Shown: positions 20,436 through 56,611, counted from the stretch's first letter. The stretch: DNA of 64,000 bases from Planctomycetota bacterium (GCA_965222115.1 CBDCTJ010000007.1:1932082-1996081), one strand, 5' to 3'. A program made the numbers and translations. The notes: a model not told the origin generated them from the sequence alone.

Positions 20436-20873
20436 ATGCCCGAGAGCCTTCCCGCCGCAGTGAGCCTCCGTGTACCCACGGACCTCGTCTTTGTTCGCCC
20501 CGTGCGAAAGATGATCGAAGGCTTGCTTGGGGGGCAAGGGTGGGGCGAAGACGATGTTGACGATGTGGCGATGATCGTTACCGAGGTCGTGCAGAACGCG
20601 ATTGAGCATGGGTCGCGCGCCGATGGCTCGGAGTGGATCGATGTCTCCATCGGGGTGCACGAGTCGTCGTTTTCGCTGGACGTGGCCGATCCCGGATCCG
20701 GCAAAGATCCTTCGATCGCCGTCACCCATGATGTGAGCGAACCGCCGTCGTTGGAAGCCGAACGCGGTCGCGGTCTTTTCCTCATCCATCGGCTATCCCA
20801 TCGATTTGAGCGCGTCCCCGCCGAGAGTGGTGGCCTACGGGTCCGAGTACTAAAGGAGGCGGGGACACCATGA
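20436..20873 (+). CDS. Anti-sigma regulatory factor, HATPase_c Ser/Thr kinase (RsbW/SpoIIAB-like)
   Basis: VTEVVQNAIEHGSRADGSEWIDVSIGV and ADPGSGKDP (N-box/G-box of GHKL kinases). 145 aa. Its stop overlaps the next start (ATGA). Confidence 0.7.
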   Translation: MPESLPAAVSLRVPTDLVFVRPVRKMIEGLLGGQGWGEDDVDDVAMIVTEVVQNAIEHGSRADGSEWIDVSIGVHESSFSLDVADPGSGKDPSIAVTHDVSEPPSLEAERGRGLFLIHRLSHRFERVPAESGGLRVRVLKEAGTP

Positions 20874-22156
20874 GCGATTCAATGTGGGATGTGCTCACGG
20901 GCAACCAAGAGCACGATCGCAGAAATGTGCGCGCGTTGCTCGAGTCGGTTCGTGAACTTTACGGCCGGCAAGCGCCCGCCGAACTTCAACGCCGTGTCGT
21001 GGATCGCGCCATTTCGGTTACGGGCGCTGAGCGCGGAATGTTGTTTCTCGTAGGTGAGGACGAACAACTCCGCGCGGCGGTTGCGCGCAAGGGCGGTGCG
21101 GATGTTCCCCTGGATATGCCGCACAGCGGAACGGTCGTCAACAAGGTTTGGAGTTCCGGTAAGTCCTTTCACACGGTCGATACGGCCGAGGCAAGTCAGA
21201 GCTCCCTTAGCGCGTCCATCGTAGCGCTCAAGCTTCTATCCGTAATGGCCGTGCCGCTTCCGGTAAAGGGCAAAGTCGCCGGTGTGCTCTACGTTGATAG
21301 TACCGCCCGGTCTCGTGAGTTCACCGACGCCGATATGACGGTGTTCGAAGTGTTGGGCGGCATGGTCGCTGTAGCTGTCGAGAATGCGCGGCTTTTGGGG
21401 GAAGAGGAAAAGAAGCAGCGTTACGAAGAGGAGTTGCGGATTGCGCAGCTCATTCAAACGCAGTTGTTTCCTCGAAAACTGCCACAAGGACCCGATTTCC
21501 AAATCGCAGCTGTGGGGCGGCCCTGCGAAGAGACCAGCGGCGACTACTACGATGTACTGCAACTGAAGAACGGAAACGTCGCTTTGGTGGTCGGCGACGT
21601 AAGCGGCCACGGTGTGGGTCCTGCGCTTCTCACCTCGTCTACACGGGCGTTGCTCCACTCCTATGTACATATGGGCATGGATCTCGTTCAAGTCGTCGAA
21701 AACCTCAACCAGTTCTTCGTGCGCGATGCACCTGACGACAAGTTCATGACGTTTTTCGTCGGTATGTTTGATCCGCGCTCACGCCAACTTCGATTCGTGA
21801 GTGCCGGCCATAACCCGCCGCTGATTTGGGTTGCCGCACGAGACGAGGTCGTCAGTTTGAAGCCTTCGGGGCCCGCGCTTGGCTTCCTTGATGAAGCCGT
21901 GTACGCATTGCAAATGACGGATCCGCTTGAGCCGGGCGACGTTGTTTTGGCCTACACCGACGGCCTCACGGAAGCGCGAAATCAGGCGGGCGACTACTGG
22001 GGCGATGACGCCATGATGCGCGTGTTTGTGGAGCAGGCCAAAGGCGGCGGCACGGCCGACGATATTCTCACGGGCGTCTTGCGCACGGTGGACCAGTACG
22101 TGGGCGACCAGCCCTGGGAAGATGACGTCACGGGCTGGGTCCTGCGCGCGTCGTAG
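20870..22156 (+). CDS. GAF domain plus PP2C-type (SpoIIE/RsbU-like) serine phosphatase
   Basis: N-terminal GAF-like region. PP2C motifs SGDYYDV, ALVVGDVSGHGVGPALL, AYTDGLTEARN. Confidence 0.8.
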   Translation: MSDSMWDVLTGNQEHDRRNVRALLESVRELYGRQAPAELQRRVVDRAISVTGAERGMLFLVGEDEQLRAAVARKGGADVPLDMPHSGTVVNKVWSSGKSFHTVDTAEASQSSLSASIVALKLLSVMAVPLPVKGKVAGVLYVDSTARSREFTDADMTVFEVLGGMVAVAVENARLLGEEEKKQRYEEELRIAQLIQTQLFPRKLPQGPDFQIAAVGRPCEETSGDYYDVLQLKNGNVALVVGDVSGHGVGPALLTSSTRALLHSYVHMGMDLVQVVENLNQFFVRDAPDDKFMTFFVGMFDPRSRQLRFVSAGHNPPLIWVAARDEVVSLKPSGPALGFLDEAVYALQMTDPLEPGDVVLAYTDGLTEARNQAGDYWGDDAMMRVFVEQAKGGGTADDILTGVLRTVDQYVGDQPWEDDVTGWVLRAS

Positions 22157-27330: not shown

Positions 27331-30132
27331 ATGCGGTCGAACCAATGGACGAGGCTACCCATGGATGCAGTTAATCCCCGAACCGGCTCGGGCGAGATTT
27401 CCAGTCTCGGCCTTCGCGATGTGACGGTTGTAACGCCATGCGATACAACCGAGCGCAGCGCGTTTACGACAAGCTCACGCGCGAGATGGGCAGTGACACC
27501 GACGACGCATGAGCGCGCACTGCGTGTGCGCCAACTGTTGCGTACAACGGCCATGGCGAGCGTGGCGGCGCTCATGAGCCTTGCCATGTTCGGTACAGCC
27601 TTTGGTGAAGACTTCCCACTGGGCGATCCACCTGCCGAGAAGATTGTCGAAGAAGCGAAGAAGACTGCGTCGGACGTAGCCAAGAAAGCTGGCGAAGTTG
27701 CGGAAGCCGTTGGTGAAGCCGCCGAGACGGCTGCGAAGCCAATCAAAGACGCTGCAAAGAAGGCGGCCGACGCGCTAGCGAAAGACTCGTCGAGTACGAA
27801 AGATGAGCCCAAGGCCGAGTCCAAAGCCGAAGCGCCTAAGGACAACGGGCAAAAGCAACCCGCGGCTGCGGGGACAACCGGCGCAACCGCACCCTCGCCA
27901 GACGGCGCGAGTGCAGCGTTGGAGCGCGAAAACCCCGGCACACCGATTCCACCCGCGCCGGGAACCTCAACAAACGCACATGCTCCCAACCCGATGGCGC
28001 CGCGTGCCGTTCAGTACCGTTTGGAACAGCGATACGATCCGCGTACCGGGCGGCGTTTCTATGTGCGTGTACCGGTCGTACCGACTGCTGTAAGCGCACG
28101 GGCAACGAATCCGCAAGGCATAGGCGGCCGCCAACCCGCCGCCCAGCCACCCCTTCCAACTCGCGTTGGCCAAGTCGCCACGGCCGACCAACTTGCTGGC
28201 CAAACGTGGGTCGAGGTACTTCCCGACGGTCGCCGCATTTTGCATCGTCCCAAGACGGCGGGCACACGTCCCAACGGCACACCCAATACGGCGGACGCAC
28301 CCGCGTCACCGGGTTCTTCATCGCAACCCGGGCAGCCCGAGCCTGCCATCGGCGACACCGGCGCGCCGCCAACCAGCAATGGTGGCCAGTCACCGAACGG
28401 CACAATTAGTCCTGGAACTACAGGTAGTCCCGGAACTACAGGTAACCCTGGATCCGCCGCCCCCGATTCCGGCATTGGCATGCCGCCCGCAGAGGGCGCA
28501 TTCCCGGAGCCCACGGCCGATCCCGATGGTGCGGAACGTACAGCCGAAGATGCAGAGGAGGACTCGCCCGGAGCTTCTTCTAAGAATGAAACGGATGATG
28601 CCGGCCAGCCCTCGGAAGGGGATGACACCAATCCCTTCAACCCCGGCGAAGACGCTGACGCGACGAATGCTGAAGAATCCGGCGCTACCGATGCCAATGC
28701 GAGCGATCCGGCCTCCGCCGCCCCCGCGGCCAAAAACCTGCCAACGCCCGGCTCAAGTGCCGATCTGGGGACTCTGCCAGGATTGAAAAAACCCCTGGCG
28801 CCGCCAGCCGTGGATCCTGCTAGCAATGACCCCGCAGATTATGGCGACCCTCGCCATGTGGGTTCCGGTGGCTTTGAAGATGTGGGTCCGCCTTCACCTC
28901 CCGCCAGTTCGTCGAAAGAGCCCGCGGCTCCGACGTCCACTGAGACAGACGACGGTGGATCGATTTGGGCACCAGCCGAAGATGACACGACAAGCGAAGA
29001 TGTGCCGGAGGGTGCTGCGCCCACGGGAACGTCAACGCCTGTAGGTAAATCAGGCGAAGATGAAATCTGGGCCCCCGCAGCCGATGCACCGGGTTCCTTT
29101 GAAGATATCGATCGTCCTGCTCGAACCGATTCGGTGCCCGCCTCGACCGCCTCTTCCTCGTTGCAGGCACGGGTTCAAGAACACATTACGCTTCTGCGTG
29201 ATCGACCCGGTAGCGCGGGCGTTACGGCATATCCCGGCAGTCTGATTCAGCGCTCCCCAGCGGATGTGGCATTGGAACCTCGCCGAAAGGCGTGCGTGAT
29301 CGCATTCTTTGATGACACGTCGCGCGGTTCAGCAAACTTCGCCGCCGATGTTCTTCCCGTGCTTGCCAACTACCGCGATGAAATCGAGTTTGTTGCGATT
29401 GAGCAAAACTCCGACGCGAAGCCAAGTCCCACCGAAGAGCGCGTTGTGCGACGCTATTTGCAAGCCGTGCCCGGGTTGGTCGTGTTGCCCCCCAATCGAG
29501 ACGACCCGCGCATTTTCAACAGTCGCTATACCGCGGACGACATTGAAGAGGCGTTGGAACTTGCCGTGCGCGCACCCACGGCGTCTTCGCCATCGCGTCC
29601 CGTCGGCTCAGGGCCCATCGACGACGGTGGAACCGAACCTCCGTGGCATCCCAACGACACGCCACTTGTGCGTGAGCCCAAGAATCCCGCGGGACGCTTG
29701 GCGGGCGATGAGATTCGCACCACGGCCCGTGCACACGCAGACGAACTCCGACGCAATGCTGGTGACCCCGATCTTGTCGGATATCCGCGATCCCTGCTAA
29801 GTACTACGGCCCCGGCCGCCATTCTTGAGCGCGGCCAAAAGCCGCTCGTGATTCTGTTTTATGACGACAGCGCGAAGGCTTCCGACCGACAAGCCGCCGA
29901 ATTCTTGCCACTGCTGATTCGTCGCAGCGACGACATCGACCTCATTTTGATCGATGTGAGCACAAAGGCCGAGTGGAACGCGGTGGAACAGAAGATTGTT
30001 CGAACCTACTACATGTCCTACGTACCCACGACGGTCGTACTCACGTCGCGTCGTGCGCCCGTGCGCTCCTGGTACCACCTGGTTCGCGCCCGTGACTTGG
30101 AACGTGCGATCAACGAGGCCGCGCGAAAGTAG
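27331..30132 (+). CDS. Secreted Ala/Pro/Gly-rich protein with C-terminal tandem duplicated thioredoxin-like (CxxC-less) domains
   Basis: Probable signal peptide at internal Met 27553 (MASVAALMSLAMFGTAFGE). A/K/E-rich amphipathic repeat region, a long P/G/T/S/D-rich disordered region, then two about 130-aa homologous domains (ACVIAFFDDTSRGSANFAADVLPVL... and PLVILFYDDSAKASDRQAAEFLPLL...). Confidence 0.6.
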   Translation: MRSNQWTRLPMDAVNPRTGSGEISSLGLRDVTVVTPCDTTERSAFTTSSRARWAVTPTTHERALRVRQLLRTTAMASVAALMSLAMFGTAFGEDFPLGDPPAEKIVEEAKKTASDVAKKAGEVAEAVGEAAETAAKPIKDAAKKAADALAKDSSSTKDEPKAESKAEAPKDNGQKQPAAAGTTGATAPSPDGASAALERENPGTPIPPAPGTSTNAHAPNPMAPRAVQYRLEQRYDPRTGRRFYVRVPVVPTAVSARATNPQGIGGRQPAAQPPLPTRVGQVATADQLAGQTWVEVLPDGRRILHRPKTAGTRPNGTPNTADAPASPGSSSQPGQPEPAIGDTGAPPTSNGGQSPNGTISPGTTGSPGTTGNPGSAAPDSGIGMPPAEGAFPEPTADPDGAERTAEDAEEDSPGASSKNETDDAGQPSEGDDTNPFNPGEDADATNAEESGATDANASDPASAAPAAKNLPTPGSSADLGTLPGLKKPLAPPAVDPASNDPADYGDPRHVGSGGFEDVGPPSPPASSSKEPAAPTSTETDDGGSIWAPAEDDTTSEDVPEGAAPTGTSTPVGKSGEDEIWAPAADAPGSFEDIDRPARTDSVPASTASSSLQARVQEHITLLRDRPGSAGVTAYPGSLIQRSPADVALEPRRKACVIAFFDDTSRGSANFAADVLPVLANYRDEIEFVAIEQNSDAKPSPTEERVVRRYLQAVPGLVVLPPNRDDPRIFNSRYTADDIEEALELAVRAPTASSPSRPVGSGPIDDGGTEPPWHPNDTPLVREPKNPAGRLAGDEIRTTARAHADELRRNAGDPDLVGYPRSLLSTTAPAAILERGQKPLVILFYDDSAKASDRQAAEFLPLLIRRSDDIDLILIDVSTKAEWNAVEQKIVRTYYMSYVPTTVVLTSRRAPVRSWYHLVRARDLERAINEAARK

Positions 30133-30184: not shown

Positions 30185-30838
30185 CTACTGCCACGTATCG
30201 ATGCGGGCTTCCAAGTGAGGTAGGGCCGTCGCCAAGCGTGTCTTGGCGCGGTGGAGCAATTGCCCCACACTCGATGCACTGATGTTCAATACACGCGCAA
30301 TCGTCTTGTAGTCACAGCCATCCAAGTAGCGCATGGTGAGTAGCAACCGATCCCGATCGGGCAACGCTTGCAGGCCCTCCCGGAGTTCCTGTAGTGCTCT
30401 GCGCTTGTCATCTTCACGCAGTAGACGATCCGCTCGGGTGTGGGTGGATACATCCGGTGCTTCAGACGCGCGCTCCAGGGGAAGCGGCGTTCGCCGGCGA
30501 CGTCGGAGCCACCGAATCACTTCGGTACGGATAATGACCCCCAGGTACGTCGAGAGTCGATACTCGGGTTTGTAGGCCTTGAGCAGTGCCCGTTCGCGGC
30601 GAACAAGTGCCAACAAAACGTCGGCCACGATCTCGTCGGTGTCAACGTCGTCGGCCCGTCCGGAATAGTGTCGCAGCAAGCGGCGCACGAGGGCCCGCAG
30701 CAAAGCGCCATAGCGATCTAGAAAGAGCTCCCACGCACCGCGATCCCCCTCGGCGCACCGTCGCGCGAGCTCGGCTTCGGTTACGTCATCGTTCGACGGG
30801 GGGGTGGGCGGATTCATGATTCTGTTAGGGAACACCAC
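30185..30838 (-). CDS. RNA polymerase sigma-70 factor, ECF subfamily
   Basis: Region 2 (ELFLDRYGALLRALVRRLLRH...DEIVADVLLAL) and region 4 HTH (LTMRYLDGCDYKTIARVLNISASSVGQLLHRAKTRL). Confidence 0.85.
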   Translation of the reverse strand: MVFPNRIMNPPTPPSNDDVTEAELARRCAEGDRGAWELFLDRYGALLRALVRRLLRHYSGRADDVDTDEIVADVLLALVRRERALLKAYKPEYRLSTYLGVIIRTEVIRWLRRRRRTPLPLERASEAPDVSTHTRADRLLREDDKRRALQELREGLQALPDRDRLLLTMRYLDGCDYKTIARVLNISASSVGQLLHRAKTRLATALPHLEARIDTWQ

Positions 30839-30996
30839 CCCCGGTGAGCAGGTTTTGTGCCGATGGATGGAGACGCGCTTTCATGTCCAGCCTACCTGGG
30901 TTCGTCTCGGCCTTCGGAAAGTCCGTTGCCGGTAGAACGTGGCCGCCTTACGCAAACAGGGGGCGCCACCATGCGTAGGATAGCCGTGCACGTAGT

Positions 30997-31860
30997 TTGG
31001 AGGACTCCATGAAACGCGCCCGAGGTACGCCTGCCGTCGGACGGTTCAGCTCTCCCGCTGTTGGAAGCCCGGTAGCCGGCTCCCCTCAGGTCGAACTGCA
31101 GACTGGCGTCAAGCTGTCCGTCGAACTATCCGCAGAGGGATCCGTATTGTCTCCTTCGGGGACTTTGGCGGCCGGCTCGTTGAAGTCCGGCACGCCCGCC
31201 GGTCATTCCGCCACTGCCAATGGCAAGCGCGCGGCTCGCCTCGCCAAGCGGCGTGAAGAGCAGGCGCGGGATGTCGTCATCGTGCGTGCCATTCTTGGGG
31301 GCGACCCCGAAGCGTTTCGGCAACTCGTCGATCGCTACCAGCAACCGCTCTTCTGGATCGCGCGCGACATCCTGTTGGATCGCGATGAGGCCTTGGATGT
31401 CGTGCAGGAGTGTTTCGTACGCGTGCACGCGGCGCTCACGCGCTTCGATCAGAGTCGCAGCTTTAAGAATTGGATATTTCGCATCGCGCGCAACCTCGCC
31501 ATCGACATGTATCGACGACGTCGACGGCGGCCCGGATCGGTGGAAGACCCTGCGGTCTATCAGGACGTTGCACCCGAAGCGGAGCGATCGCAATTGGGGG
31601 GACCGAGTGATGGTCGAGCATCGCTGACGGAGATCAAACAGCGTGTACGCGATGTAATGAATGCGCTCCCGCTTGAATACCGTCTCGCGTTGACGCTACG
31701 TGATTTTCACGGCCTTACGCCCCGCGAAGTCGCACGGGTTACCGATTGCAGCTATGCCACCGCGCGTTGGCGACTCCACCGCGCGCGCGCGTTGTTTCGC
31801 GCGTCTTGGCAAGATCGATTTGGCCATGCGATACCCGCGCCTGCAGGAGGTGTGTCATGA
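30997..31860 (+). CDS. RNA polymerase sigma-70 factor, ECF subfamily (with about 90-aa N-terminal extension)
   Basis: FRQLVDRYQQPLFWIARDILLDRDEALDVVQECFVRVH (region 2) and LTLRDFHGLTPREVARVTDCSYATARWRLHRARALF (region 4). Transcribed divergently from the other ECF sigma gene. Confidence 0.8.
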   Translation: MEDSMKRARGTPAVGRFSSPAVGSPVAGSPQVELQTGVKLSVELSAEGSVLSPSGTLAAGSLKSGTPAGHSATANGKRAARLAKRREEQARDVVIVRAILGGDPEAFRQLVDRYQQPLFWIARDILLDRDEALDVVQECFVRVHAALTRFDQSRSFKNWIFRIARNLAIDMYRRRRRRPGSVEDPAVYQDVAPEAERSQLGGPSDGRASLTEIKQRVRDVMNALPLEYRLALTLRDFHGLTPREVARVTDCSYATARWRLHRARALFRASWQDRFGHAIPAPAGGVS

Positions 31861-32846
31861 GTCCTATGCACCACAGGGATAGCATCCAAGACGAACGGGT
31901 TGTGATTGGCGAAGCAACCGGCGATGTGAACCATGAGGGCGTTGACCAGCAGGTTCGGGCACTTGTAAAGCGAGTAGAGCGCGCATTGGATCTTGGGCAA
32001 GACGTTTCGCCCGACGATGTGGATGCGTTACATACGCTTTCGCCCCTGCTTTGTAGGGCGCCGTCCACGCCGCGGCGCGCGCGGTTGCGTTCACGTTTGG
32101 CCGCGGTGGAAGCGCGGTTGGGGCTTAGGGCGCGCACCGAACCCGCGTCATCGTTTGAAGGTCTATATGAACGCGTGGCCACGCGTGTGGTGGAGGAGTC
32201 GGCCACAAGCGTGGATGCCGCGGGCGAAGCCGTGCGCTGGCGCCGCGCTGCGCTCTCAAACTCATTCTTGGATGCTCCGCGTGCGCTCATGTGGTGGCGC
32301 GTTGCGGCGTGCACCGCTGTGGCGTTGCTTGCGGTGGGGGCGTGGGCTTGGCAAGCGTCGAGCGATGGCGACTCACGCGCAACGATTGCGCGTGGGGATT
32401 CTGATGTTCTGCATCGAAGTCGCGTGATAGCCGACGACGATATGCGTCATGGCCTGCTGACCCTACACCCTTATGGCAACGACGCTGAAAACAACGGCGT
32501 CGAAGATTGGGCAGGAGACGTAGAGCCTGTCACGGACCGGCCCTTGCTCGCGCGACCCGTTCGGTTCGGCGCGAATTCCAATCCGGATCCATCGGAAGGT
32601 ATGTATTCAAGTGCACTCGTTAAATCGCGAAAAGACGGCGTAGAGGCACTTACAGGCCGCCAGATACGGTTTTCCAAACATCCCGGTTCGTCGTCCTACT
32701 CGGTGTGGATTGAATCCGATGCGGGTGAGCCAGAGATCATGTTGTTTGTAGACCGCAATCAGACGATTCGCACTCGCGTGAGGTCACGTAGCGGTTCGCG
32801 CGCTGCCATCCATTCAAGTGGCGAGCGAACCGAAGATCGTAAGTAG
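31857..32846 (+). CDS. Putative anti-sigma factor (single-pass membrane protein)
   Basis: ATGA overlap with the sigma gene stop (start taken at MSPMHHRD, 31857). A central TM (WWRVAACTAVALLAVGAWAW). The position is typical for cognate anti-sigma factors. No recognisable family motif. Confidence 0.45.
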   Translation: MSPMHHRDSIQDERVVIGEATGDVNHEGVDQQVRALVKRVERALDLGQDVSPDDVDALHTLSPLLCRAPSTPRRARLRSRLAAVEARLGLRARTEPASSFEGLYERVATRVVEESATSVDAAGEAVRWRRAALSNSFLDAPRALMWWRVAACTAVALLAVGAWAWQASSDGDSRATIARGDSDVLHRSRVIADDDMRHGLLTLHPYGNDAENNGVEDWAGDVEPVTDRPLLARPVRFGANSNPDPSEGMYSSALVKSRKDGVEALTGRQIRFSKHPGSSSYSVWIESDAGEPEIMLFVDRNQTIRTRVRSRSGSRAAIHSSGERTEDRK

Positions 32847-32855
32847 CAGCGACTC

Positions 32856-34100
32856 ATGAATCCATCGTTTGCATCCATTTCGTCGTTGGCGTTTGTAGCT
32901 GGCGTGCTGGCCTTCATGGGTCCGGCCTATGCCGAGGAACAGGCGGCGCCTGCGTCGAAACAACGCGCCCCCGCCAAGCAAACGAGCCCATCCCCGTCCG
33001 CACCGTCTGCACCTACACCGGCTACATCTACACCCGTTTCGATCGATGTATTGAGGCGCGTAAAGCAAAGTACAGCGCGCGTTGTGTGGCGAGATCGTGT
33101 ACGCCCCGCGGTGGTCACGCGGCGCAATGCAATCGCCATCGATGCCGATCAATACCTTTTGATGGCAGGTCCACCGCCGGAAGTTACGGCGGGCGCCATT
33201 ACCGTGACGCACGCAAATGGACTATCGGGCCGTGCCAGGGTGATTGCAGGCGACACGGAAGCAGCGTTGACACTTTTGCGCCTACCGGGTCATGGACTAC
33301 CTGCAGTTGCGCTTCGAAACGAAACTTCGGCGACGCTGGCGCATCGAGGTGAGCGCGTTGCCATGGTAAATGCCGCTGGCGCGATTGCGCGCGGCGCGCT
33401 GCGATCGTTCGGCACGCGCGTCACGGTGCGTCGAGGGCGTTTCCGTAGCCAGTCGTTGGGACTGTTGGAAGCGGGGCTTGCCACCGTGGCGGATGACGTC
33501 GGCAGTCCGTTTGCGGACGTGAATGGACGGGTTATTGGATTGTTCTTGGCCCATCGCGTGGCCAATACGACGAGTCGTGAAAGGGGCGCAACGCGCACCG
33601 GTGTAACGCTTCGCCCGCATGTCGTTTCGTCGTATGCGATTCCCGCATCGACGATTGCGGTGGTGTGGCCACTGCTTCGCGATCGCGGACGTGTACCGCG
33701 CGCCATACTTGGGTCTCACGTGAAAGCCAGGCCCGCACCTGCCGAGTTGCGTGAGCATCTTTGTGCCGGTTGCCCATCCTTCGTGATTACTCAGGCTGCC
33801 ACGATTGGGCTCGGCAACGACGATGTGTTGCGCTCCAACGATGTCATTGTTTCGTTCAATGATCTTCGGTTGCCCGAGGGGGCTAGCTTGGACGAGGCAC
33901 TGCTTCCCTATCGCCCTGGCGATTCGATTCGTGTGCGCGTGTTGCGCGGCGGAAAACCAACGGAAGTGGTCGTCAAGCTGAAAGAGCGCCGACAGACCGC
34001 CATTTCGATAGGCGGGGGCGGAATTCAGATTCGTCAGCAGGTTCGTTCGAAGGCTCGCTCCGGCGCTGCGGCAAGTACCGAATCGCCCGACGAGCGGTAG
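32856..34100 (+). CDS. HtrA/DegP-like trypsin-fold protein with C-terminal PDZ; catalytic Ser apparently substituted
   Basis: Signal peptide. Trypsin-like core with a His candidate (ITVTHANG) and an Asp candidate (GDTEAALTLLRL), but the Ser motif reads DDVGSPFADVNGRVIGLF instead of GNSGGPLxNxxGxVIGI. PDZ-like C-terminus (VIVSFNDLRLPEGASLDEALLPYRPGDSIRVRVLRGGKPTEV). Confidence 0.55.
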   Translation: MNPSFASISSLAFVAGVLAFMGPAYAEEQAAPASKQRAPAKQTSPSPSAPSAPTPATSTPVSIDVLRRVKQSTARVVWRDRVRPAVVTRRNAIAIDADQYLLMAGPPPEVTAGAITVTHANGLSGRARVIAGDTEAALTLLRLPGHGLPAVALRNETSATLAHRGERVAMVNAAGAIARGALRSFGTRVTVRRGRFRSQSLGLLEAGLATVADDVGSPFADVNGRVIGLFLAHRVANTTSRERGATRTGVTLRPHVVSSYAIPASTIAVVWPLLRDRGRVPRAILGSHVKARPAPAELREHLCAGCPSFVITQAATIGLGNDDVLRSNDVIVSFNDLRLPEGASLDEALLPYRPGDSIRVRVLRGGKPTEVVVKLKERRQTAISIGGGGIQIRQQVRSKARSGAAASTESPDER

Positions 34101-34227
34101 TATCAGGGTTGCCCAATACGGGGACAATGAAGTGTTTTGTTTGTATTGAGCCAAGTATGGTCAAGGGGCCCTGAAATCCCCATTATTTAGCGTCCCACGT
34201 CGATCTCGGGCTGTCTATACCCTCTCG

Positions 34228-36261
34228 ATGCCTACGGATCGACCCCAAGACTCCCGCTTTCCCCGCGATCCCCGCCTAATGGGTCGTGCCGGGGAGCCGC
34301 ACGCAAGAGCCGACGACGCCAACAAATGGATCTTTGAGGCGAATGAATGCCTTGAGATTCCCGAGCAGCGTTCTTCGTGGCGAGATTCGTCTTCGCAGAC
34401 TGGAGAAGACGTAGGAGTTGATCCGAGCCTCGTATCGACATTGCTAGCCGACGAGGCGCTTCGCCGGCTCGTGATCGAGGTGGCTCGCGTGGAATTGGAA
34501 GAGGAATATTCGGCCGGGTCCGATTCGGTGGCTCACGTTGGTGGTCCCACCGCCGATCGACTCGCAGAGAATGGACTCGCAAGCGTTGGTGCGGGGAGCC
34601 CTGGATTGGCGCCCACCATTCGCCAGGCGGCCATTCGTGCCTTTAGTGAGTCGTTGGCTTTTGATGAGTCATCGAATGTTCTAAATGGTGCTGGCTCAAA
34701 TGGTGTCTCGCCTTCGCTCAGGCTCGTAACAGTGTCCAATCGAAAGGCCGAGTCCAATCGAGAGGCCGATGAGAAGCAGTCGTCGGCTGCTGCTTCTGAA
34801 CGTTCTGCGGGGAAGGCCAACACGTCGTTTCCTTGGATCCGCATTGCGGCGTTGGTGTTGGTCGCCGTGGGTACCGCCGCGTTGTGGGTCGGGTCCACGC
34901 CCACGAAAGCCGAGGCGGGGTTGTCGCTCCAACGCATTGGTCGTCTCAGCCATCGTGGTGCGGTGTGGTCCCTTCCCAGCATTGAGCCCGCGCGCATTGC
35001 GCATAAGGGCGAGTCGTTTACGCCTCGTGAAGATGAATGGGTGTCGGTCGGACTCACGCATGAGTCGATGGTGGTCGTCGGCACCGGCGATCGCGTGCGC
35101 GTCGTTCCCGCGGAGGAGGTTTTCGCTTCGTTTGATGTCGACTCGATTGAAGCCAATCGCCACACAAAAGCACTTGGCGCATCGATCCGTCCAGGTCAGG
35201 GCATGCTTCGCTTGGAAGCGGGCGAAGCACGTATTGCGTGCAAGCCCGGTGAACCGGTGGTGTTGGCCATAGGTACCGCTGGTGTGCTCGTCGTGGACTA
35301 CGGCGCGGTCCATGTCGTCTTGGAGAGCGGGCTTGCGCATCCGATTGAGTCGGGACGATCGACGGCACGAATCGCAAGTGATGTGAGCGCGCCTCTCATT
35401 GCGCTCGCGCCTCGCAGTCGCGCCGAGTTTTATCCATCCGGCCGATCGAACACGGACTCGAGCACTGCATCGAGCGAGGTGTCGTCAACAAACGATGCAA
35501 CATATGAGAGTTTTGTTTTGTGCGCCGGCGCGCGCGCATTGGTTGGCGACGGCTTTGTTGAGCCCGTAGGGGCGGCCGATCTTTCGCTGTTTCGTGAGCT
35601 TCGATTCTTCGGCGGTCATGTGCCGCGTCCCTTGGCACAGCCACGTGTTCATCCGCGTCGATTCCGCGTGGGCGGTGTAGTGGCTCGCACGGGACGGCAC
35701 GAAGTCTCTTTAGGCTATCGTCGATCGACGAAGCGCGATAGTGAGCGCAAGCAACCGGAAACCCATGCGGCCTATTACATTGCCCGACTCTCCTATCGGC
35801 CGCCGCCGGCATTGGCGGATGCACAGTCGATTCGTGTAGAACTGCGGGCGCCGAAGGGCGCGGCCGCTTGGCTCTTGCGTGAGCCCATCGCGTTGAAAGA
35901 CCTTCGCGTTCTCAAATCACCGCCTGCGTCGGCGGTAGTGAACGATGCGAATACGGCGTCGCATGAACCGAGCACGGCTCATTTCGAGCTCGCGCTTCCC
36001 CGCGGTTGGTATGCCGCGCTGAACGGTCGCCCACTCGAAATTGCGCTCTGGTTGCCCGTGTCTCGGGCGGTGCAGAATCAAGGATCCGGTACGCCGTCGT
36101 CGCGACCGTCGCGTTTTGGTCGGCTCGGCGTCTTTGACGGCGTAACGTTTGTTCTTGAGGAAGGCGACGGCGTGTACGACACGCCGCGTAACGATTCAAA
36201 TCCTTGCTCCATTCCTTCTGGAAATGAACCTGCTTCCACGACGAAGCGGAGGAATTCATGA
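34228..36261 (+). CDS. FecR-like domain membrane protein (anti-sigma/sensor-like)
   Basis: A TM near aa 200 (WIRIAALVLVAVGTAALWV), followed by a FecR-like beta-rich region (RLEAGEARIACKPGEPVVLAIGTAGVLVVDYGAVHVVLESG). Its stop overlaps the start of the giant gene. Confidence 0.45.
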   Translation: MPTDRPQDSRFPRDPRLMGRAGEPHARADDANKWIFEANECLEIPEQRSSWRDSSSQTGEDVGVDPSLVSTLLADEALRRLVIEVARVELEEEYSAGSDSVAHVGGPTADRLAENGLASVGAGSPGLAPTIRQAAIRAFSESLAFDESSNVLNGAGSNGVSPSLRLVTVSNRKAESNREADEKQSSAAASERSAGKANTSFPWIRIAALVLVAVGTAALWVGSTPTKAEAGLSLQRIGRLSHRGAVWSLPSIEPARIAHKGESFTPREDEWVSVGLTHESMVVVGTGDRVRVVPAEEVFASFDVDSIEANRHTKALGASIRPGQGMLRLEAGEARIACKPGEPVVLAIGTAGVLVVDYGAVHVVLESGLAHPIESGRSTARIASDVSAPLIALAPRSRAEFYPSGRSNTDSSTASSEVSSTNDATYESFVLCAGARALVGDGFVEPVGAADLSLFRELRFFGGHVPRPLAQPRVHPRRFRVGGVVARTGRHEVSLGYRRSTKRDSERKQPETHAAYYIARLSYRPPPALADAQSIRVELRAPKGAAAWLLREPIALKDLRVLKSPPASAVVNDANTASHEPSTAHFELALPRGWYAALNGRPLEIALWLPVSRAVQNQGSGTPSSRPSRFGRLGVFDGVTFVLEEGDGVYDTPRNDSNPCSIPSGNEPASTTKRRNS

Positions 36262-39200
36262 TGCAACGAAATCTTCGAACGCCTGCCGAACACGGCGTGG
36301 CCATGATCATCGTCATCTCCATTTTGGTGACCATGCTGCTCATTGCCGTGCCGTTTGCGATGAGCATGCGCCAAGGTGAAGAGCGCACCGAAGCCGTGGC
36401 CGCTAAGCATCGCGCCATTACGGATGCTCAGGTGTTGAGCGATTTGGTGAAGGCGTTCTTGCAAGGGACGCGTCCCGAGCAAGAGGCCGCGCTGCGCACG
36501 CGTGGGGGCGGGGCGCTCGGCGTTGACGCCGATCCCAATGTGGACTCGCTTGCCGAGATTACGCCCGATGAGCGATTTCGTTCAAAGGCTGCGGAGATCA
36601 TTACCGAGCAGTGGATCACCGATCCCGCCATGGCGGCGCGCGCACAGAGTTTGAAGGCACGTGGGCTCTCGCCCCTTAACGATGATCGTGGTTCGATTTG
36701 GACCGTGCGTGTGCAAGATGCACAGGCGCGCATCAATGTGAATAGCGGCGCCGTATGGTTGCTCGCCAATGTCATGGGTGCGGCCACACTCTCAGAAGAT
36801 GTGGACGGCGGCGCCACCGACATTCCCGTCAGCAACGTTGTGGCACCCCTCGCAGGGTTCCCCGGGTTCCCCAGAGAGAACGGCTTCATTCGCATTGGTC
36901 GTGAGGTCATTAGCTACGAACAGTTCGATGGCTCGGCATTTCGCAATTGCACTCGAAGTGCACTGCAAGATTCACCGCTTGGCGACAATGGTACGGCCGA
37001 AGAGTACGAGCAGGGCACACCGGTCATCGATTACGTGGCCTACAAAGTGGCGACCCATCTTTTTGCAAGCAAGCCTGGCGAAATCAACCGCTTCCGCACG
37101 GTGGAAGAACTCAAGAACATCGCCACCTGGGGTGGTGGCGGCACCATGCTCTCCGATCGCCTTGAACAGTTGGAGCCATTCCTCACAGCCTTTAGCCGGC
37201 GGGAAACTGCCGGGGGCTGGATGGCGGAACAACTCGTCACCAATCAGTTGCCCGAGTCCCTGGAAACGGGTAGCGCCGATGTAGTGAAGGTGCGTGACCT
37301 CGTCAATCCCGCGGGGAACTCGTGGTACGTAAATCCCGGTACGCCCGTACGCATTTCAAATGGCGTGCACACGGCCTACCAGATGGTCGCCAACTTGGGT
37401 GATCTAGACGGCCGTCAACGAGGTCGCCAGTTCGCTTTGGCGGGTACGGTGGGCAGTCTCGGTGGTGACATCACCTTCGAAGGTGGCGAAACGCGCGTCG
37501 CTGCGTTTGCACCCTATCCCATCAACATCAATACGGCGTCGCGGGAAGTCCTGTATGCCGTCATGGCCAACGTGCAGCTATGGCGCGCGAAATCGGACGA
37601 ACAGATTGTCACGCCCAAGTTGGCGTGGATGTTGGCGGAGATGATTGAGCGCGAGCGCAAGGGCGCATTGTCCGTCGATGCCGAGTCCGGCGAGCGCCGC
37701 AGTGGTCCGTTTCGCCATGCTGAGGATTTCGGCCGCTTTCTCGGCAAGCTTGTGGATGCGGGCACGCTCAAGCTCGCACAGCAAGCGGCGCTGTATTTGA
37801 ACGCCACCAATCCACACTGCTCAGAACTGCGTTTTGGTACCGCGCCGTGGAACTATCGCACGTTGGATGTCTATCACGTGGAGACGCGTGTTGCGCTCAA
37901 TAATCGCGTGGGTGAACAGATTGCGGTTGCGGGCACGCGCGAAGTTGTTGAAATCGGTAGCGATAGCACCTGTGTATGGAGCATCGACTCGCAGAGTGAG
38001 TTCGAGCAGCGCTTGGAGCAGGGCCACGGCGCCAAGTGGACCACCACGTTTCCCTACAACGTGACGTTTAAAAATGAGGGATTGGCCCACATTCAGCCCG
38101 GGATTCGCGGGCCGCAGCAGTTTATTCGTGAGATTTATCCAAGCGACGACCGCGAGGAAGACCTCGGGGACGTTCGTATGGAGCCGGCGCGCATGCGTTT
38201 GCCCGGTGCGCAGGTCATCGACAACTTTGATTCGCGTTATTACGCCTACGGCCATTACACCGTGTACGACGGCGTCTATCGCAAGCGCACCAACCAGACG
38301 TTGATGGGTCGTCGCGACAAGGTCGTGCGTCCGTTCAAAATGTCGTTCTGGTGGCGCCCCTATTCCAGCGCCAACTGGACAGCGTTTGATTGCGCGCGCG
38401 AAAAGTTCGAAGATCGTTTTGCGATCTTTGTGACCGACAGCGAAAACGGTGGGCAAGAGCTGGTATTCCGTTGTTGCGCGAGCACGCTTGAGCAGCGCGG
38501 TGCGGAAGTCTATGTTCCCCTGGAGCGCATCGGCTACGAACCCGGTACGTGGTACCACATCGACGTGAGTTGCCGAGGGGAAGATCCCTCCACCATGCAA
38601 CTGCTAGTTGATGGTGTGGATGTTGGTATTCGCCGCTCGTTTACCTATTTGCGATCTTCGATTTCACAATCCGACGAGGAGATCGGCGTGGAGTCCACTG
38701 CGGGTTTCCCACCGCGCGGTGCACTGCGTATTGGCAACGAGATCATTGAGTACGATCTACTTGCAGGCGATACGGGATTTAGTGAGCTACTGCGCGGCGC
38801 ACGCGGCACCACGGCGGGGGATTGGGCCGAGGGCACACCGGTGCACTTGCTTGGCTATTCACTGCCCATTACCGTGGATGTCATGAAGGGTGGCGCCACG
38901 CTCGAGGACGGGCTCGGCAAATGGCGCGCAGTTCGCATTGTGAGCGATGAAGACTCGTTGACGGTCAATGTGGGACCCAATGGCGACATGCCCATTGTGA
39001 TTTTCGGGTATGCCCCCGAGAACACAGAGCCCACGCTTGAGATCACGGGTATGTGGAATTATGACGACACCGAGTGTACCGATGCGTTTCAGTCAGAAGG
39101 ATTTGCGCTCCTCGGTTGCCCCAAGCCAACGTTTTCCGATGGTGTTAATGCAGAAGAAGAGCCGGAGGTCATTCTCGGTGGCCATGAGGTTGTCTACTAC

Positions 39201-41846
39201 ACGAAGAACGGGAACTCCTTCACCGTTGAGCGCTTTCAAAAGACCGCGTGGCAAGGGGCCGCAGAGCCCTACTTCTTGATTTCGGGGGCGGATGCGGGTG
39301 CGGGGAAGTTCAACTTTCCCTGTTACATGTTGCCCATATCGATCTTAGCAAGCGGCGGGCAGGATCCCGATGCTTATCTCAATCCAGCGGTTGTGGAACA
39401 TCGAGAGATTCTTGGTCGGTATTACAACAATAGTGAGTCTGCGCGCATCTTGATTGGAACCGACGATCCTGTGGATCAACATGAAGTGATTCGATATGAC
39501 TCCATCGATACGCAACGTGCGCAGACGGGCGCGTTGTTTCTTCGCGACCGTGCGTTGGGCAGAATAACGCGACATTTCTTTGGAAACTCTGAGACGATTG
39601 AAGGTGGTTCATCCACCAATCCAGATCCCGACCCTGACCCCGATCCGGATCCAGATCCCGATCCCACGCCAGATCCCGGTCCTGGTTCAGGGGGTGGTAG
39701 TGGCGGAGGTGTCATCGATCCGGTGCCGGGCGATGGTGACGCGCCCCAACCCAATGGTGAGATTCCTCCTGGTTTGAGAGATCCGGAAGACACGCCCAGC
39801 ACGGAAGATCCAGATGAGGGTGAGACACCGACGGAACCCGGTACGGGCGAGCCTGATGAGGGAGAGGGCGAAGGCGGTAGCGAAGAACCAGATGAGCCCA
39901 CTGGCGAGACGCAAGAAGAGGAAGAGAGTGGAGATAGTCTTCTCGATGGAGAGGGGGAAGGCGTCGAAGAAGATGACGTGGACGACAACGGAAGCGATAC
40001 AGGGGGTGACAACGGGGAGGGTACGGGTGGTGCCAAGCCCACGCCCGAAGAGCCCACAGAAGACGAGAGTGGTGGTGGTGAATCTGAGTCATCACCCGAA
40101 CCTGATCGGGAAGACGAGATCATTCCCAATCAAGTTCTGCAGGATGACGTCGAGGTTGATGAAGACGTGCCACAGGAGGACACCGAGTTCGGTCTGGGCC
40201 GAAATGTGTACTACGAGCCGTTGGGGCCGAGAACCGCGATCGATGAATTGGGGTTCCGTGGCGTGAACGGAACAGTTCACCGTGATCACGCTTCCGGAGG
40301 TGAAGAACGCAACAGCCGCGTGATTCCTTGTTTCCGCGTATGGCAAGGTGGCTCGGGCATCACCGCTCGTGTGGGTCGCAACGACCGCATCACTTTGACG
40401 AGCGGGAGCCTGGAGGATCCAGTCGAGTATGAAGTCGGCATCCGTTGGGCCAGTAGCGATTGGGTCGCGCCGGAAGACTTTCCGCCTGAACGTATTAAGG
40501 CGGCCGTACAGGGCGCGCGTACGATTCGTACGGATTGGCGTGAGTTTCCTCGGGCACTTAAGTTCCCCTCGGGCGAACTACCGAGTCGTTTAGGCCGAGA
40601 GATTGAGTTTGGCCAGAGTACGGTGTCGGACAGCGGCATTGCTACGGCCTTCATGGATGACCTGCATATATGGCGACAAGATCTCGATCCACCGCTGCGT
40701 GTGGTGAATGAAGAAGAGATCACGCCCACGACGCCCGAGATCGCCGTAGTCAATACCGTCAATTTGCGTGAAGTATCGGACTTTGATGGGTTCCGCGCCA
40801 GCGGCGGCCTGATCATGGTTGAAAGCGAGATCATTTACTACCGCGGATACCGCGTGGACGGTGAGCGCACCTACGTCTTTGAAAACTGCATTCGTGGCGT
40901 GATGGGCACGCGCGCACGTGCCCATGCCATTGGTGCCAAGGCGCGCTTGCTGGCCGACATTCCCGCATCAACGCTGCAAGGGGGGCTCGCACCCGAGTCG
41001 TCGTCGATTCCTATTGCGGATGCACGCAACTGGCCCAGCGAGGGTCTTGTGCGCATCGTTGGCGAGGAAACGGTCGAGTTGGCCCACTACACCCGTAAGA
41101 GTGGCGCCGACCTGATTATGCCCGAGTCGCTGGATGCCGATCGGCGTTCCCGTGGACGCGGGTTATTCCGCGGTCGCTTTGGCACCGAAGCCATGTCGCA
41201 TGACTCCGATCAGGTCGTGTTCTTCCATCCCTACCGTTTCTGGGATCGCTTTGCGCCGCGTGCGGCGGAAGACGGGGACGCGTTCCCCGGTGTACACGAT
41301 CATCCCGAGACGTCCTACCTTGAGCTCGGCACCAAGGTGCACTCGGCCTATTGGCGTGGATTTACATGGCAAGAGAACCTGATCGCCAACTCGCGAGGTG
41401 CTGGAAACACGTTCGACAGCAGTGTCGGTGATGGCAGTGGCGCGCTTGATGTGATTGTGCTGGCGCGCTTCAATCCCAACGTCCCGTGGGACAGTACGCG
41501 CGTCATGGATATGCGCGATGCGTCAAGCGGGCTCGGGCAGACGTCGGGCGACAAGCGGGATGCCATGGATGCCCTGTTCGTGTTTGACGCACCGGGCGAA
41601 GGCGTGATCGGGTCTGGACTGAACGGTCATCACTTGGGTGTTGAATCCGACACGGCCGAATTCCGGGTCTACTTTGACTACAAGCCAAATGCCTATGAGG
41701 CCATGGACTTCCCGTCTACATCGGGCACGGTCTTTGATGATGAGCGCGTGTTCGTCAATGACTGGAAGTCCACGCCGTGGCTTCAGGCGCTCCGCGCGTC
41801 CTATGTGAGCCGAACGAAGACGCGTTACCGCGTGCCGTTGCGATAG
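36258..41846 (+). CDS. Giant (1862 aa) protein with GspK/PilX-like pseudopilin N-terminus, internal repeats and acidic PD/E-rich linker
   Basis: GGAGGA RBS. The N-terminus RTPAEHG|VAMIIVISILVTMLLIAVPFAMSMRQGEERTEAVAAKHRAITDAQ matches the GspK-type prepilin-like pattern (Gly at -1, no Glu5). Three copies of the motif (I/L)RIGxE(I/V)IxY...RGxxGTxAxxxxxGTPV. (PD)8 and Asp/Glu-rich block at about aa 1120-1290. Confidence 0.7.
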   Translation: MMQRNLRTPAEHGVAMIIVISILVTMLLIAVPFAMSMRQGEERTEAVAAKHRAITDAQVLSDLVKAFLQGTRPEQEAALRTRGGGALGVDADPNVDSLAEITPDERFRSKAAEIITEQWITDPAMAARAQSLKARGLSPLNDDRGSIWTVRVQDAQARINVNSGAVWLLANVMGAATLSEDVDGGATDIPVSNVVAPLAGFPGFPRENGFIRIGREVISYEQFDGSAFRNCTRSALQDSPLGDNGTAEEYEQGTPVIDYVAYKVATHLFASKPGEINRFRTVEELKNIATWGGGGTMLSDRLEQLEPFLTAFSRRETAGGWMAEQLVTNQLPESLETGSADVVKVRDLVNPAGNSWYVNPGTPVRISNGVHTAYQMVANLGDLDGRQRGRQFALAGTVGSLGGDITFEGGETRVAAFAPYPININTASREVLYAVMANVQLWRAKSDEQIVTPKLAWMLAEMIERERKGALSVDAESGERRSGPFRHAEDFGRFLGKLVDAGTLKLAQQAALYLNATNPHCSELRFGTAPWNYRTLDVYHVETRVALNNRVGEQIAVAGTREVVEIGSDSTCVWSIDSQSEFEQRLEQGHGAKWTTTFPYNVTFKNEGLAHIQPGIRGPQQFIREIYPSDDREEDLGDVRMEPARMRLPGAQVIDNFDSRYYAYGHYTVYDGVYRKRTNQTLMGRRDKVVRPFKMSFWWRPYSSANWTAFDCAREKFEDRFAIFVTDSENGGQELVFRCCASTLEQRGAEVYVPLERIGYEPGTWYHIDVSCRGEDPSTMQLLVDGVDVGIRRSFTYLRSSISQSDEEIGVESTAGFPPRGALRIGNEIIEYDLLAGDTGFSELLRGARGTTAGDWAEGTPVHLLGYSLPITVDVMKGGATLEDGLGKWRAVRIVSDEDSLTVNVGPNGDMPIVIFGYAPENTEPTLEITGMWNYDDTECTDAFQSEGFALLGCPKPTFSDGVNAEEEPEVILGGHEVVYYTKNGNSFTVERFQKTAWQGAAEPYFLISGADAGAGKFNFPCYMLPISILASGGQDPDAYLNPAVVEHREILGRYYNNSESARILIGTDDPVDQHEVIRYDSIDTQRAQTGALFLRDRALGRITRHFFGNSETIEGGSSTNPDPDPDPDPDPDPDPTPDPGPGSGGGSGGGVIDPVPGDGDAPQPNGEIPPGLRDPEDTPSTEDPDEGETPTEPGTGEPDEGEGEGGSEEPDEPTGETQEEEESGDSLLDGEGEGVEEDDVDDNGSDTGGDNGEGTGGAKPTPEEPTEDESGGGESESSPEPDREDEIIPNQVLQDDVEVDEDVPQEDTEFGLGRNVYYEPLGPRTAIDELGFRGVNGTVHRDHASGGEERNSRVIPCFRVWQGGSGITARVGRNDRITLTSGSLEDPVEYEVGIRWASSDWVAPEDFPPERIKAAVQGARTIRTDWREFPRALKFPSGELPSRLGREIEFGQSTVSDSGIATAFMDDLHIWRQDLDPPLRVVNEEEITPTTPEIAVVNTVNLREVSDFDGFRASGGLIMVESEIIYYRGYRVDGERTYVFENCIRGVMGTRARAHAIGAKARLLADIPASTLQGGLAPESSSIPIADARNWPSEGLVRIVGEETVELAHYTRKSGADLIMPESLDADRRSRGRGLFRGRFGTEAMSHDSDQVVFFHPYRFWDRFAPRAAEDGDAFPGVHDHPETSYLELGTKVHSAYWRGFTWQENLIANSRGAGNTFDSSVGDGSGALDVIVLARFNPNVPWDSTRVMDMRDASSGLGQTSGDKRDAMDALFVFDAPGEGVIGSGLNGHHLGVESDTAEFRVYFDYKPNAYEAMDFPSTSGTVFDDERVFVNDWKSTPWLQALRASYVSRTKTRYRVPLR

Positions 41847-56285: not shown

Positions 56286-56611
56286 CCAGAAGTTGCGGTC
56301 AGGCGCGTGTCGCAGTGCGCCAAGGCTAGGCCCAGCGAAACGGGTCGCTGCTCGGGGTTGCGCTTCTTCCCATAGGTTTCGCCCTCAAAAGGTGGCGGAA
56401 TTGTGACGGGATGGGGTTTCGAGGCAATGGGCGGCAGGGTGCCTTATGCGTAGCAGCCTATTCGCCTACGTTGCTTTCTGATGACCCGAATTGCTTGCTA
56501 TGGTGAGGTCTGTCATGGCGTCGATCGATGGGTTGCCGAGGTAGCTCGGTTGCTCGTGTGCACGAAGTTTGGCACCAATGTGAGTCGTCGACCCACGACC
56601 GCTGGAGGAAC

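Follow-up and report, generated by a model that had tools for sequence, protein, structure and literature searches.

A candidate ECF sigma factor cassette of a Planctomycetota bacterium encodes an HtrA-fold protein without the catalytic triad

We analysed a 64,000-nucleotide stretch of DNA from a Planctomycetota bacterium (GCA_965222115.1 CBDCTJ010000007.1:1932082-1996081; hereafter the window), in which two genes for extracytoplasmic function (ECF) sigma factors, designated sigM on the minus strand and sigP on the plus strand, face away from each other, and sigP is followed by the genes of a single-pass membrane protein of 329 amino acids (aa) and of a protein related to the HtrA proteases, designated pseudo-HtrA. 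The evidence supports a three-gene unit in which an ECF sigma factor is coupled in translation to a membrane partner and co-transcribed with an HtrA-fold/PDZ protein. We tentatively read positions 30953-34100 as a cassette for envelope signalling that regulates its own expression and in which the dead HtrA regulates non-catalytically, an account in which we place somewhat less than even confidence; the former protease now probably acts by binding and not by cutting. The idea of a non-catalytic sensor or scaffold, already raised in an original prediction made from the sequence of this DNA, is the best reading available, and it was strengthened by the family-wide loss of the triad and by the fixed order of the three genes.

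Pseudo-HtrA comprises a signal peptide (32856-32933), a protease-like domain (~33039-33641) and a PDZ domain (~33693-33989). As the signal peptide looks cleavable (AYA|EE), the protein is predicted to be soluble in the periplasm, unlike DegS. The C-terminal PDZ domain was recognised by the PDZ_2 model with 31.1 bits (cut-off 27). The protease-like domain scored 25.8 bits with Trypsin_2, which is below the cut-off of 27.6, and pseudo-HtrA ranged far below the thresholds of the NCBIfam models for DegP, DegS and DegQ (TIGR02037, 43.4 vs 416; TIGR02038, 27.2 vs 423). Foldseek searches with an AlphaFold2 (AF2) model of the protein (predicted local distance difference test, pLDDT, 79.8) retrieved DegQ, DegP, AlgW, DegS, HtrA of Mycobacterium tuberculosis and MucD as top matches, with E values from 9e-20 for the best to ~1e-16 and template modelling scores to the target of 0.6-0.83. 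Comparison by hhalign of a 19-member profile of the pseudo-HtrA family with a 21-member profile of ordinary HtrA proteins returned a probability of 99.95%. The predicted structure shows that the third protein of the unit keeps the chymotrypsin-like two-barrel fold of HtrA.

The positions of the catalytic triad were mapped from three independent alignments, namely phmmer against Legionella DegQ structures, MAFFT including a bona fide HtrA, and hhalign. The original prediction had noted that the serine motif of the protein reads DDVGSPF and that the catalytic Ser is replaced by Val; the three alignments concur in this, pairing GNSGGP with DDVGSP and placing Val215 (codon 33498-33500) at the position of the nucleophile. 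The accompanying claim that the His and Asp residues are retained proved wrong. The His position is occupied by Pro106 (codon 33171-33173; TNnHVV vs MAGPPP) and the Asp position by Ala137 (codon 33264-33266; tDlAlLKI vs aALTLLRL). His119 is not conserved, and Asp133 represents an Asp of the GxDxxxD(L/I)A motif that is conserved without being catalytic and that comes before the catalytic residue. In the predicted secondary structure Pro106 follows strand 100-104, Ala137 stands before strand 138-142 and Val215 before strand 218-220. None of the family members carries His, Asp or Ser at the triad columns (0/19), and the nucleophile column is filled by L, V, I, M, A, T, R or Q. A search of the 19-member alignment for an alternative nucleophile in the protease-like domain revealed no conserved His, Ser, Cys or Lys. 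The carboxylate-binding loop of the PDZ domain (R-x-x-L-G) is kept as Arg282, Leu285 and Gly286. Judged from its sequence, pseudo-HtrA cannot be a serine protease, nor can it be a site-1 protease of the DegS kind.

When 1.84 billion representatives were searched exhaustively with HMMER, 18 proteins came out at E <= 1e-30, followed by a gap and then by ordinary HtrA and PDZ proteins at ~1e-11. The motif D-x-G-[ASG]-P-[WFLV]-x-D, together with the lack of GNSGG, was found in 22 retrieved sequences. The family is small and discrete, with ~22 clusters; its members share 30-63% identity with pseudo-HtrA of the window and have 19 positions in common that do not vary. Word-indexed protein searches with pseudo-HtrA or with the 329-aa protein returned only the query itself and one relative, a profile of the family added little, and scans of genome and metagenome contigs with family peptides hit only ordinary HtrA genes and no orthologue. 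Relative to the closest relative (63% identity), the protease-like domain showed proportions of nonsynonymous (pN) and synonymous (pS) differences which we roughly estimated as 0.25 and 0.71, respectively. By these sequence comparisons, pseudo-HtrA is a maintained pseudoenzyme under purifying selection and not a decaying gene. Outside the window, P0064, P0066 and P0075 form a second divergent HtrA-like set, which has PGS[AP]C instead of GNSGG and carries ALHPRAD close to the His position.

For the comparison of gene neighbourhoods we used the contigs of five other family members and of the closest relative, among which L001, L043, L045, L046 and L047 are long enough to judge gene order. In all five of these informative loci (5/5) the order of sigma factor, membrane protein and pseudo-HtrA genes is fixed, and the counterparts of the membrane protein in the five other loci, 229-319 aa in length, have a start which overlaps the stop of the sigma factor gene. 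The same overlap had been reported for the window and is confirmed: the TGA of sigP (31858-31860) and the ATG (31857) of the 329-aa open reading frame (ORF) share the sequence ATGA, and GGAGG lies 6 nt upstream of this ATG. The HtrA-like gene indeed follows directly, with a gap of 9 and not 10 nt after the TAG. The ORF map likewise reproduced the two divergent sigma factor genes as ORFs at 30185-30838 (minus strand) and 30997-31860 (plus strand). An exact look-up in public gene calls returned the 210-aa form of sigM, not the 217-aa form, and the 283-aa form of sigP. With the public starts, ATG 30817 and ATG 31009, the intergenic region is 191 bp long (30818-31008) in place of the 158 bp (30839-30996) stated earlier, while the ORF coordinates as such hold.

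The 329-aa protein is most likely the anti-sigma factor of the sigP product, as judged from its position and topology and not from homology. It has a single hydrophobic segment at ~aa 143-166, which corresponds to a transmembrane segment at ~32283-32354, and is built from a helical cytoplasmic N-terminal region, a juxtamembrane motif, the transmembrane segment and a poorly conserved periplasmic tail. The motif LSxxFLDAPRxLxxWR (32253-32300), which stands before the transmembrane segment, is common to the orthologous membrane proteins, as is the helical N-terminal region. The window protein has a predicted single-pass topology with the N-terminus inside, and a place directly downstream of the sigma factor gene was observed in 6/6 loci. 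The periplasmic tails of the orthologues vary in length and show low conservation, with the short motifs DxRxxLL and GLRxxPL in common. One of the six orthologues contains HAETCPAC, which fits the zinc anti-sigma signature HxxxCxxC, together with a weak zf-HC2 match (E = 0.064). The AF2 model of the window protein, computed from two sequences, is helical and of low confidence (pLDDT 60.5), and Foldseek with this low-confidence model found no match at E < 0.7. The earlier proposal of an anti-sigma factor is thus borne out by position and topology, and not by a domain match in the window protein. Inside the gene, a SECIS_2 match at 32523-32572 (27.1 bits, E = 0.05) stayed below the gathering score of 70 and was taken as a chance hit.

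The sigP product matched TIGR02937 (sigma70-ECF) with 103.3 bits (cut-off 42.9), Sigma70_r2 with 63 bits and Sigma70_r4_2 with 48 bits. Both sigma factors of the window show regions 2 and 4 only, with no matches to r3 or r1, which places them in the ECF class (group 4). The best specific NCBIfam models for the sigP product were PRK11922 (120.9 bits) and SigW (105.5 bits), each below its own cut-off. A Shine-Dalgarno sequence, GGAGGA, lies 5 nt upstream of ATG 31009, and both elements are kept in the related locus L001. Orthologues of the sigP product are 50-69% identical to it and 219-283 aa long. Its N-terminus consists of ~70 low-complexity residues, followed by a conserved basic segment, GKRAARLAKRREEQARD, before region 2. 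An N-terminal extension of about 90 aa had been predicted; such an extension exists and was found in every orthologue, and in the window it would span either ~70-85 aa from ATG 31009 according to full-length ECF models, or ~40 aa if translation starts at the alternative in-frame TTG 31147, which is preceded by GAGGGA and would yield a protein of 237 aa. The core of the protein is conserved (pN 0.15 vs pS 0.71), whereas the first ~70 codons evolve fast (pN 0.46). The content of guanine plus cytosine (GC) by codon position, which was tried as an indicator of translation of the extension, gave a flat profile and no signal. N-terminal extensions of ECF sigma factors have been described, but they are uncommon (PMC7826278).

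A scan of 30839-30996 for target promoters, proposed with the original prediction, yielded an ECF-type motif at 30953-30979. It comprises a CAAAC -35 element (AAC at 30955-30957), a spacer of 16 nt and a CGTAGG -10 element (CGTA at 30974-30977), and it lies 31 nt upstream of ATG 31009. Promoters of ECF sigma factors generally carry AAC at -35 and CGT at -10, as in the sigmaW sequence TGAAAC-N16-CGTA. The motif [AC]AAC-N16/17-CGTA, mostly extended to CCAAC...GCGTAGG, stands ahead of the sigP orthologue in 6/6 loci at a distance of 31-79 nt from the start codon. This recurrence at the orthologous position is the evidence for a promoter, because the motif by itself is not rare: the 64-kb window contains three matches, the same number as shuffled sequence, with the copy at 30953-30979 as the only intergenic one, and in the related loci ~100 kb of strand-sequence contain ~5 further copies. 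The other copies in the window were considered as regulon members and rejected as chance matches in coding regions at the shuffle rate; the motif scan of the 64-kb window identified no regulon member beyond the sigP operon. The ECF-type motif upstream of sigP implies that this operon is probably autoregulated, and this for the plus-strand sigma factor only.

In the mechanism which we propose, the dead HtrA would serve in the periplasm as a binding module by way of the substrate cleft, the PDZ groove or the two together, and would hold as a pseudo-substrate the periplasmic tail of the anti-sigma candidate, which is poorly conserved and probably disordered. Such shielding would be functionally similar to that of RseB/MucB on RseA/MucA; RseB is known to shield RseA from DegS (PMC8103513), and HtrA proteins inactivated by engineering still bind substrates and act as chaperones (PMC11642142). 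Competition for the dead HtrA would come from envelope proteins that are unfolded or from C-termini that are exposed, the freed tail would become accessible to a true protease whose gene lies elsewhere, and the sigma factor would be released. Because the pseudo-HtrA gene sits in the operon of the sigma factor itself, induction would replenish the shield and provide negative feedback. A more far-reaching version, which we consider unlikely, holds that the pseudoenzyme replaces a co-anti-sigma factor of the RseB/MucB type, that the dead HtrA keeps the tail as a permanent pseudo-substrate until titrated off by unfolded envelope proteins, and that the second sigma factor and a giant secreted protein belong to a linked two-sigma circuit. 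If this were true, an ECF pathway would be switched by competition for the cleft of a dead protease and not by allosteric activation of a live one.

Several points weigh against a regulatory role of the dead HtrA in this cassette. In the 329-aa protein of the window, Pfam, NCBIfam and PDB profile searches revealed neither an anti-sigma domain nor HxxxCxxC. The C-termini of the membrane proteins are unconserved and lack the hydrophobic character of the usual ligands of HtrA PDZ domains, and no gene for a site-1 or site-2 (M50) protease was seen among the window ORFs scanned. The triad positions were derived from sequence and profile alignments combined with the secondary structure of a predicted model, and not by superposition on an experimental structure. 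As synonymous divergence (dS) is near saturation (pS ~0.7), selection could be estimated only roughly. Furthermore, a dead HtrA that is no more than an effector of the regulon would be expected to be co-transcribed just as well. As for the regulated-proteolysis module of the RseA/DegS kind that had been envisaged for this locus, an ECF sigma factor with a coupled single-pass partner is indeed present, but the analogy to DegS fails: an active site-1 protease was not found in the cassette, whose only HtrA-like protein has neither a triad nor a membrane anchor. Regulated proteolysis of the membrane protein is not evidenced by the pseudo-HtrA gene, and another protease would be needed.

The main rival explanation, to which we give a somewhat lower probability, takes the dead HtrA as an output of the pathway, i.e. 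as a protease-free periplasmic holdase or chaperone that is induced by the sigma factor and makes no direct contact with the anti-sigma factor. Co-transcription from the sigma factor's own promoter and the kept binding loop of the PDZ domain would suit such a protein. HtrA variants without proteolytic activity still suppress aggregation and can rescue stress phenotypes (PMC11642142), and DegP S210A still protects cells. In addition, htrA/degP is a classic member of the sigmaE regulon (PMC8103513), and mucD as well as the mycobacterial htrA gene are located in sigma factor operons. However, an effector need not stay tied to a sigma/anti-sigma pair, yet the gene order is fixed across proteins that are only 30-40% identical; moreover, this very small family was encountered in no other context than the sigma/anti-sigma one, whereas a general chaperone would be more likely to spread or to be met in other places.

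It appears improbable that the dead HtrA is the non-catalytic subunit of a hetero-oligomer with an active HtrA encoded elsewhere, which it would tune or target, for example to the anti-sigma tail. HtrA proteins are obligate trimers formed via the protease domain, and the fold of this domain, through which the trimers are built, is preserved in pseudo-HtrA. A precedent is given by AtDeg7, in which an inactive protease domain mediates trimerisation (PMC3473262). Against such a hetero-oligomer, neither the window nor those related loci that were examined showed a gene for an active HtrA.

Even less probable, to a degree that we give it hardly any weight, is a hydrolase with a non-canonical active site. 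Asp133, Asp214 and Asp221 are invariant in the protease-like domain and could be taken for such a site, but the domain lacks any conserved His, Ser, Cys or Lys, the nucleophile column is variable, and Asp214 and Asp221 occupy the Asn and Asn/Asp positions of the L1 loops of normal HtrA proteins, so that they look like inherited scaffold. A decaying pseudogene or functionless accident of the lineage, as the Trypsin_2 score under the Pfam cut-off and the few relatives might suggest, is refuted in practice by the intact ORF with its signal peptide, the ~22 related clusters with 19 invariant positions, a pN well below pS in the protease-like domain and the confident model.

The divergent sigma factor encoded by sigM matched TIGR02937 with 88.2 bits (cut-off 42.9), Sigma70_r4_2 with 58 bits and Sigma70_r2 with 25.3 bits; its nearest NCBIfam model, TIGR02989 ('Rhodopirellula/Verrucomicrobium'), was hit below the cut-off. 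Together with a DUF1573 match, this model would tentatively fit a PVC/Planctomycetota-like origin of the DNA. Orthologues with 49-80% identity adjoin the cassette in 5/5 other loci, and the comparison with L001 gave a pN of 0.13 vs a pS of 0.67. Its upstream region (30818-30952, minus strand) contains a GGTAGGAT-like box, which reads TAGGCT in the window and TAGGAT or TAGAAT in the other loci. This box looks like a -10 element of the housekeeping type and not like an ECF promoter, and because of this sigM appears not to be autoregulated.

Downstream of the cassette, the window encodes a 677-aa protein with a single transmembrane segment (~aa 203-225) and a 1862-aa protein. Homologues of the former follow pseudo-HtrA in L001, L044 and L046. 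Pfam and PDB profile searches returned no family or structure match for it, and a FecR-like identity, guessed from its beta-rich periplasmic part, was dropped after these searches came back empty. The 127-nt gap between the pseudo-HtrA gene and the 677-aa gene is well conserved and carries a -10-like box, CTATACC, 6 nt before the ATG. The box is kept in the window (34214-34230), in L001 (~11396-11412) and in L044, and it suggests a separate promoter for the 677-aa gene, possibly with a leaderless mRNA. Within 34101-34227 we detected no terminator-like site and no Rfam match, and folding was no better than for shuffled sequences.

Counterparts of the 1862-aa protein with 48-55% identity are encoded in L046 and L043, in the latter case co-oriented downstream of sigM. 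Its sole Pfam match was Rcc01698_C (31.5 bits). The protein has a hydrophobic N-terminus resembling pseudopilins/GspK and a low-complexity core rich in Asp, Pro and Glu. In L043, where sigM is not divergent, an operon encodes a 425-aa protein, sigM, a 459-aa single-pass protein and an 1846-aa protein, of which the last is 48% identical to the 1862-aa protein of the window and the 459-aa protein shows a weak likeness to the 677-aa protein around the transmembrane segment (E = 0.18). As sigM of L043 shares its operon with counterparts of both genes, a separate sigM module with the 677-aa and 1862-aa genes as likely partners is weakly supported; these partners would lie beyond the region (30185-34100) to which the original prediction referred. 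The coordinates of all features are compiled in Table 1.

Table 1. Features of the candidate cassette and of its conserved neighbours, in coordinates of the window.
Feature	Position	Strand	Remarks
Divergent ECF sigma factor, sigM	30185..30817	-	210 aa, ATG 30817; longest ORF from GTG 30838 (217 aa)
ECF-type promoter candidate of the plus-strand operon	30953..30979	+	motif recurrence across loci
ECF sigma factor, sigP	31009..31860	+	283 aa, ATG 31009; longest ORF from 30997 (287 aa)
Anti-sigma candidate	31857..32846	+	329 aa, single transmembrane segment
Triad-less HtrA-fold protein, pseudo-HtrA	32856..34100	+	414 aa, signal peptide and PDZ domain
677-aa single-pass membrane protein	34214..36261	+	including upstream box, ATG 34228; conserved neighbour of the cassette
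1862-aa protein	36258..41846	+	overlaps the stop of the 677-aa gene; conserved neighbour

On the other side of the cassette, at 27331-30132, lies the gene of a 933-aa protein with a long region rich in Ala, Pro, Ser and Glu and with two C-terminal repeats similar to the slr1796 family of thioredoxin-like proteins (NF038096, 31.7 bits, below the cut-off). Homologues of this protein flank the cassette in L001, L043, L046 and L047. A GAF-SpoIIE (PP2C) phosphatase is encoded near the cassette both in the window (20870-22156) and in L043 (11828-13113), where it is preceded by a HATPase_c_2 protein. The occurrence of the phosphatase in both genomes and of the HATPase_c_2 protein in L043 points to a sigma-regulatory module of the partner-switching type near the ECF cassette.

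Elsewhere in the window, genes related to type II secretion at 1469-3562, 8637-9911 and 10159-11499 encode a secretin (Secretin, GspD N0), a T2SSE ATPase and a 446-aa PDZ protein. The latter, with an N-terminal transmembrane segment and a C-terminal PDZ domain, looks GspC-like; it was rejected as a second HtrA, as only its PDZ domain aligns to HtrA profiles. A reverse transcriptase (RVT_1, 137.7 bits; 52536-54071, minus strand) and a GmrSD-type restriction endonuclease (56528-58315, plus strand) are encoded in a stretch where the GC content falls to 0.54-0.56, which may be a mobile or defence islet.

The cassette offers a natural experiment in which binding and sensing by an HtrA protein are parted from cutting, and it is a candidate case of a bacterial pseudoenzyme recruited to signal transduction. 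Its three genes and one promoter motif provide a compact test of whether occupancy of the cleft alone gates an ECF pathway. The impact will stay limited until such a test is made, as the family is rare and occurs in uncultured or little-studied bacteria. Our literature search, which was incomplete, found no described bacterial family of triad-less HtrA proteins tied to an ECF sigma/anti-sigma pair. Operons of an ECF sigma factor, an anti-sigma factor and an active HtrA are known as textbook circuits of the envelope-stress response; the triad-less HtrA in such an operon appears to be new.

Among known systems, the algU-mucA-mucB-mucC-mucD operon of Pseudomonas aeruginosa (PMC13608001) is similar in that an autoregulated ECF sigma factor and a single-pass anti-sigma factor are encoded together with a downstream periplasmic protein of the HtrA family. 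MucD, which feeds back on its own pathway and was among the Foldseek matches to pseudo-HtrA, differs in that its triad is intact, it has two PDZ domains and it must be proteolytically active to exert its regulatory effect (PMC13608001), whereas pseudo-HtrA has lost the triad and has one PDZ domain. Genes for MucB/RseB or MucC are absent from the cassette; by analogy, the dead HtrA may fill a MucB-like role. In mycobacteria, sigE presumably has rseA as its neighbour. The mycobacterial sigE-htrA locus (Rv1221-Rv1223; PMC6538288) also combines an HtrA gene with an ECF sigma factor in one operon, and its HtrA in M. tuberculosis was among the top fold matches; in contrast to pseudo-HtrA, it is an active, essential and membrane-anchored protease (PMC6538288).

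The RpoE-RseA-RseB system of Escherichia coli with DegS and RseP (PMC8103513) shares with the candidate cassette, as we read it, an ECF sigma factor held by a single-pass anti-sigma factor, with a soluble partner as the guard of its periplasmic part, and a sensor with HtrA fold and PDZ domain. However, DegS is an active, membrane-anchored site-1 protease encoded elsewhere, whereas here the dead HtrA is a single soluble protein whose gene is part of the operon itself; and the fold of RseB is unrelated to HtrA. Plants and algae possess inactive Deg/HtrA proteins, such as AtDeg16 and the second domain of AtDeg7 (PMC3473262), with a mutated triad and proposed non-proteolytic roles. They differ from pseudo-HtrA in that they are eukaryotic, have usually lost only one residue of the triad and have no link to a sigma factor.

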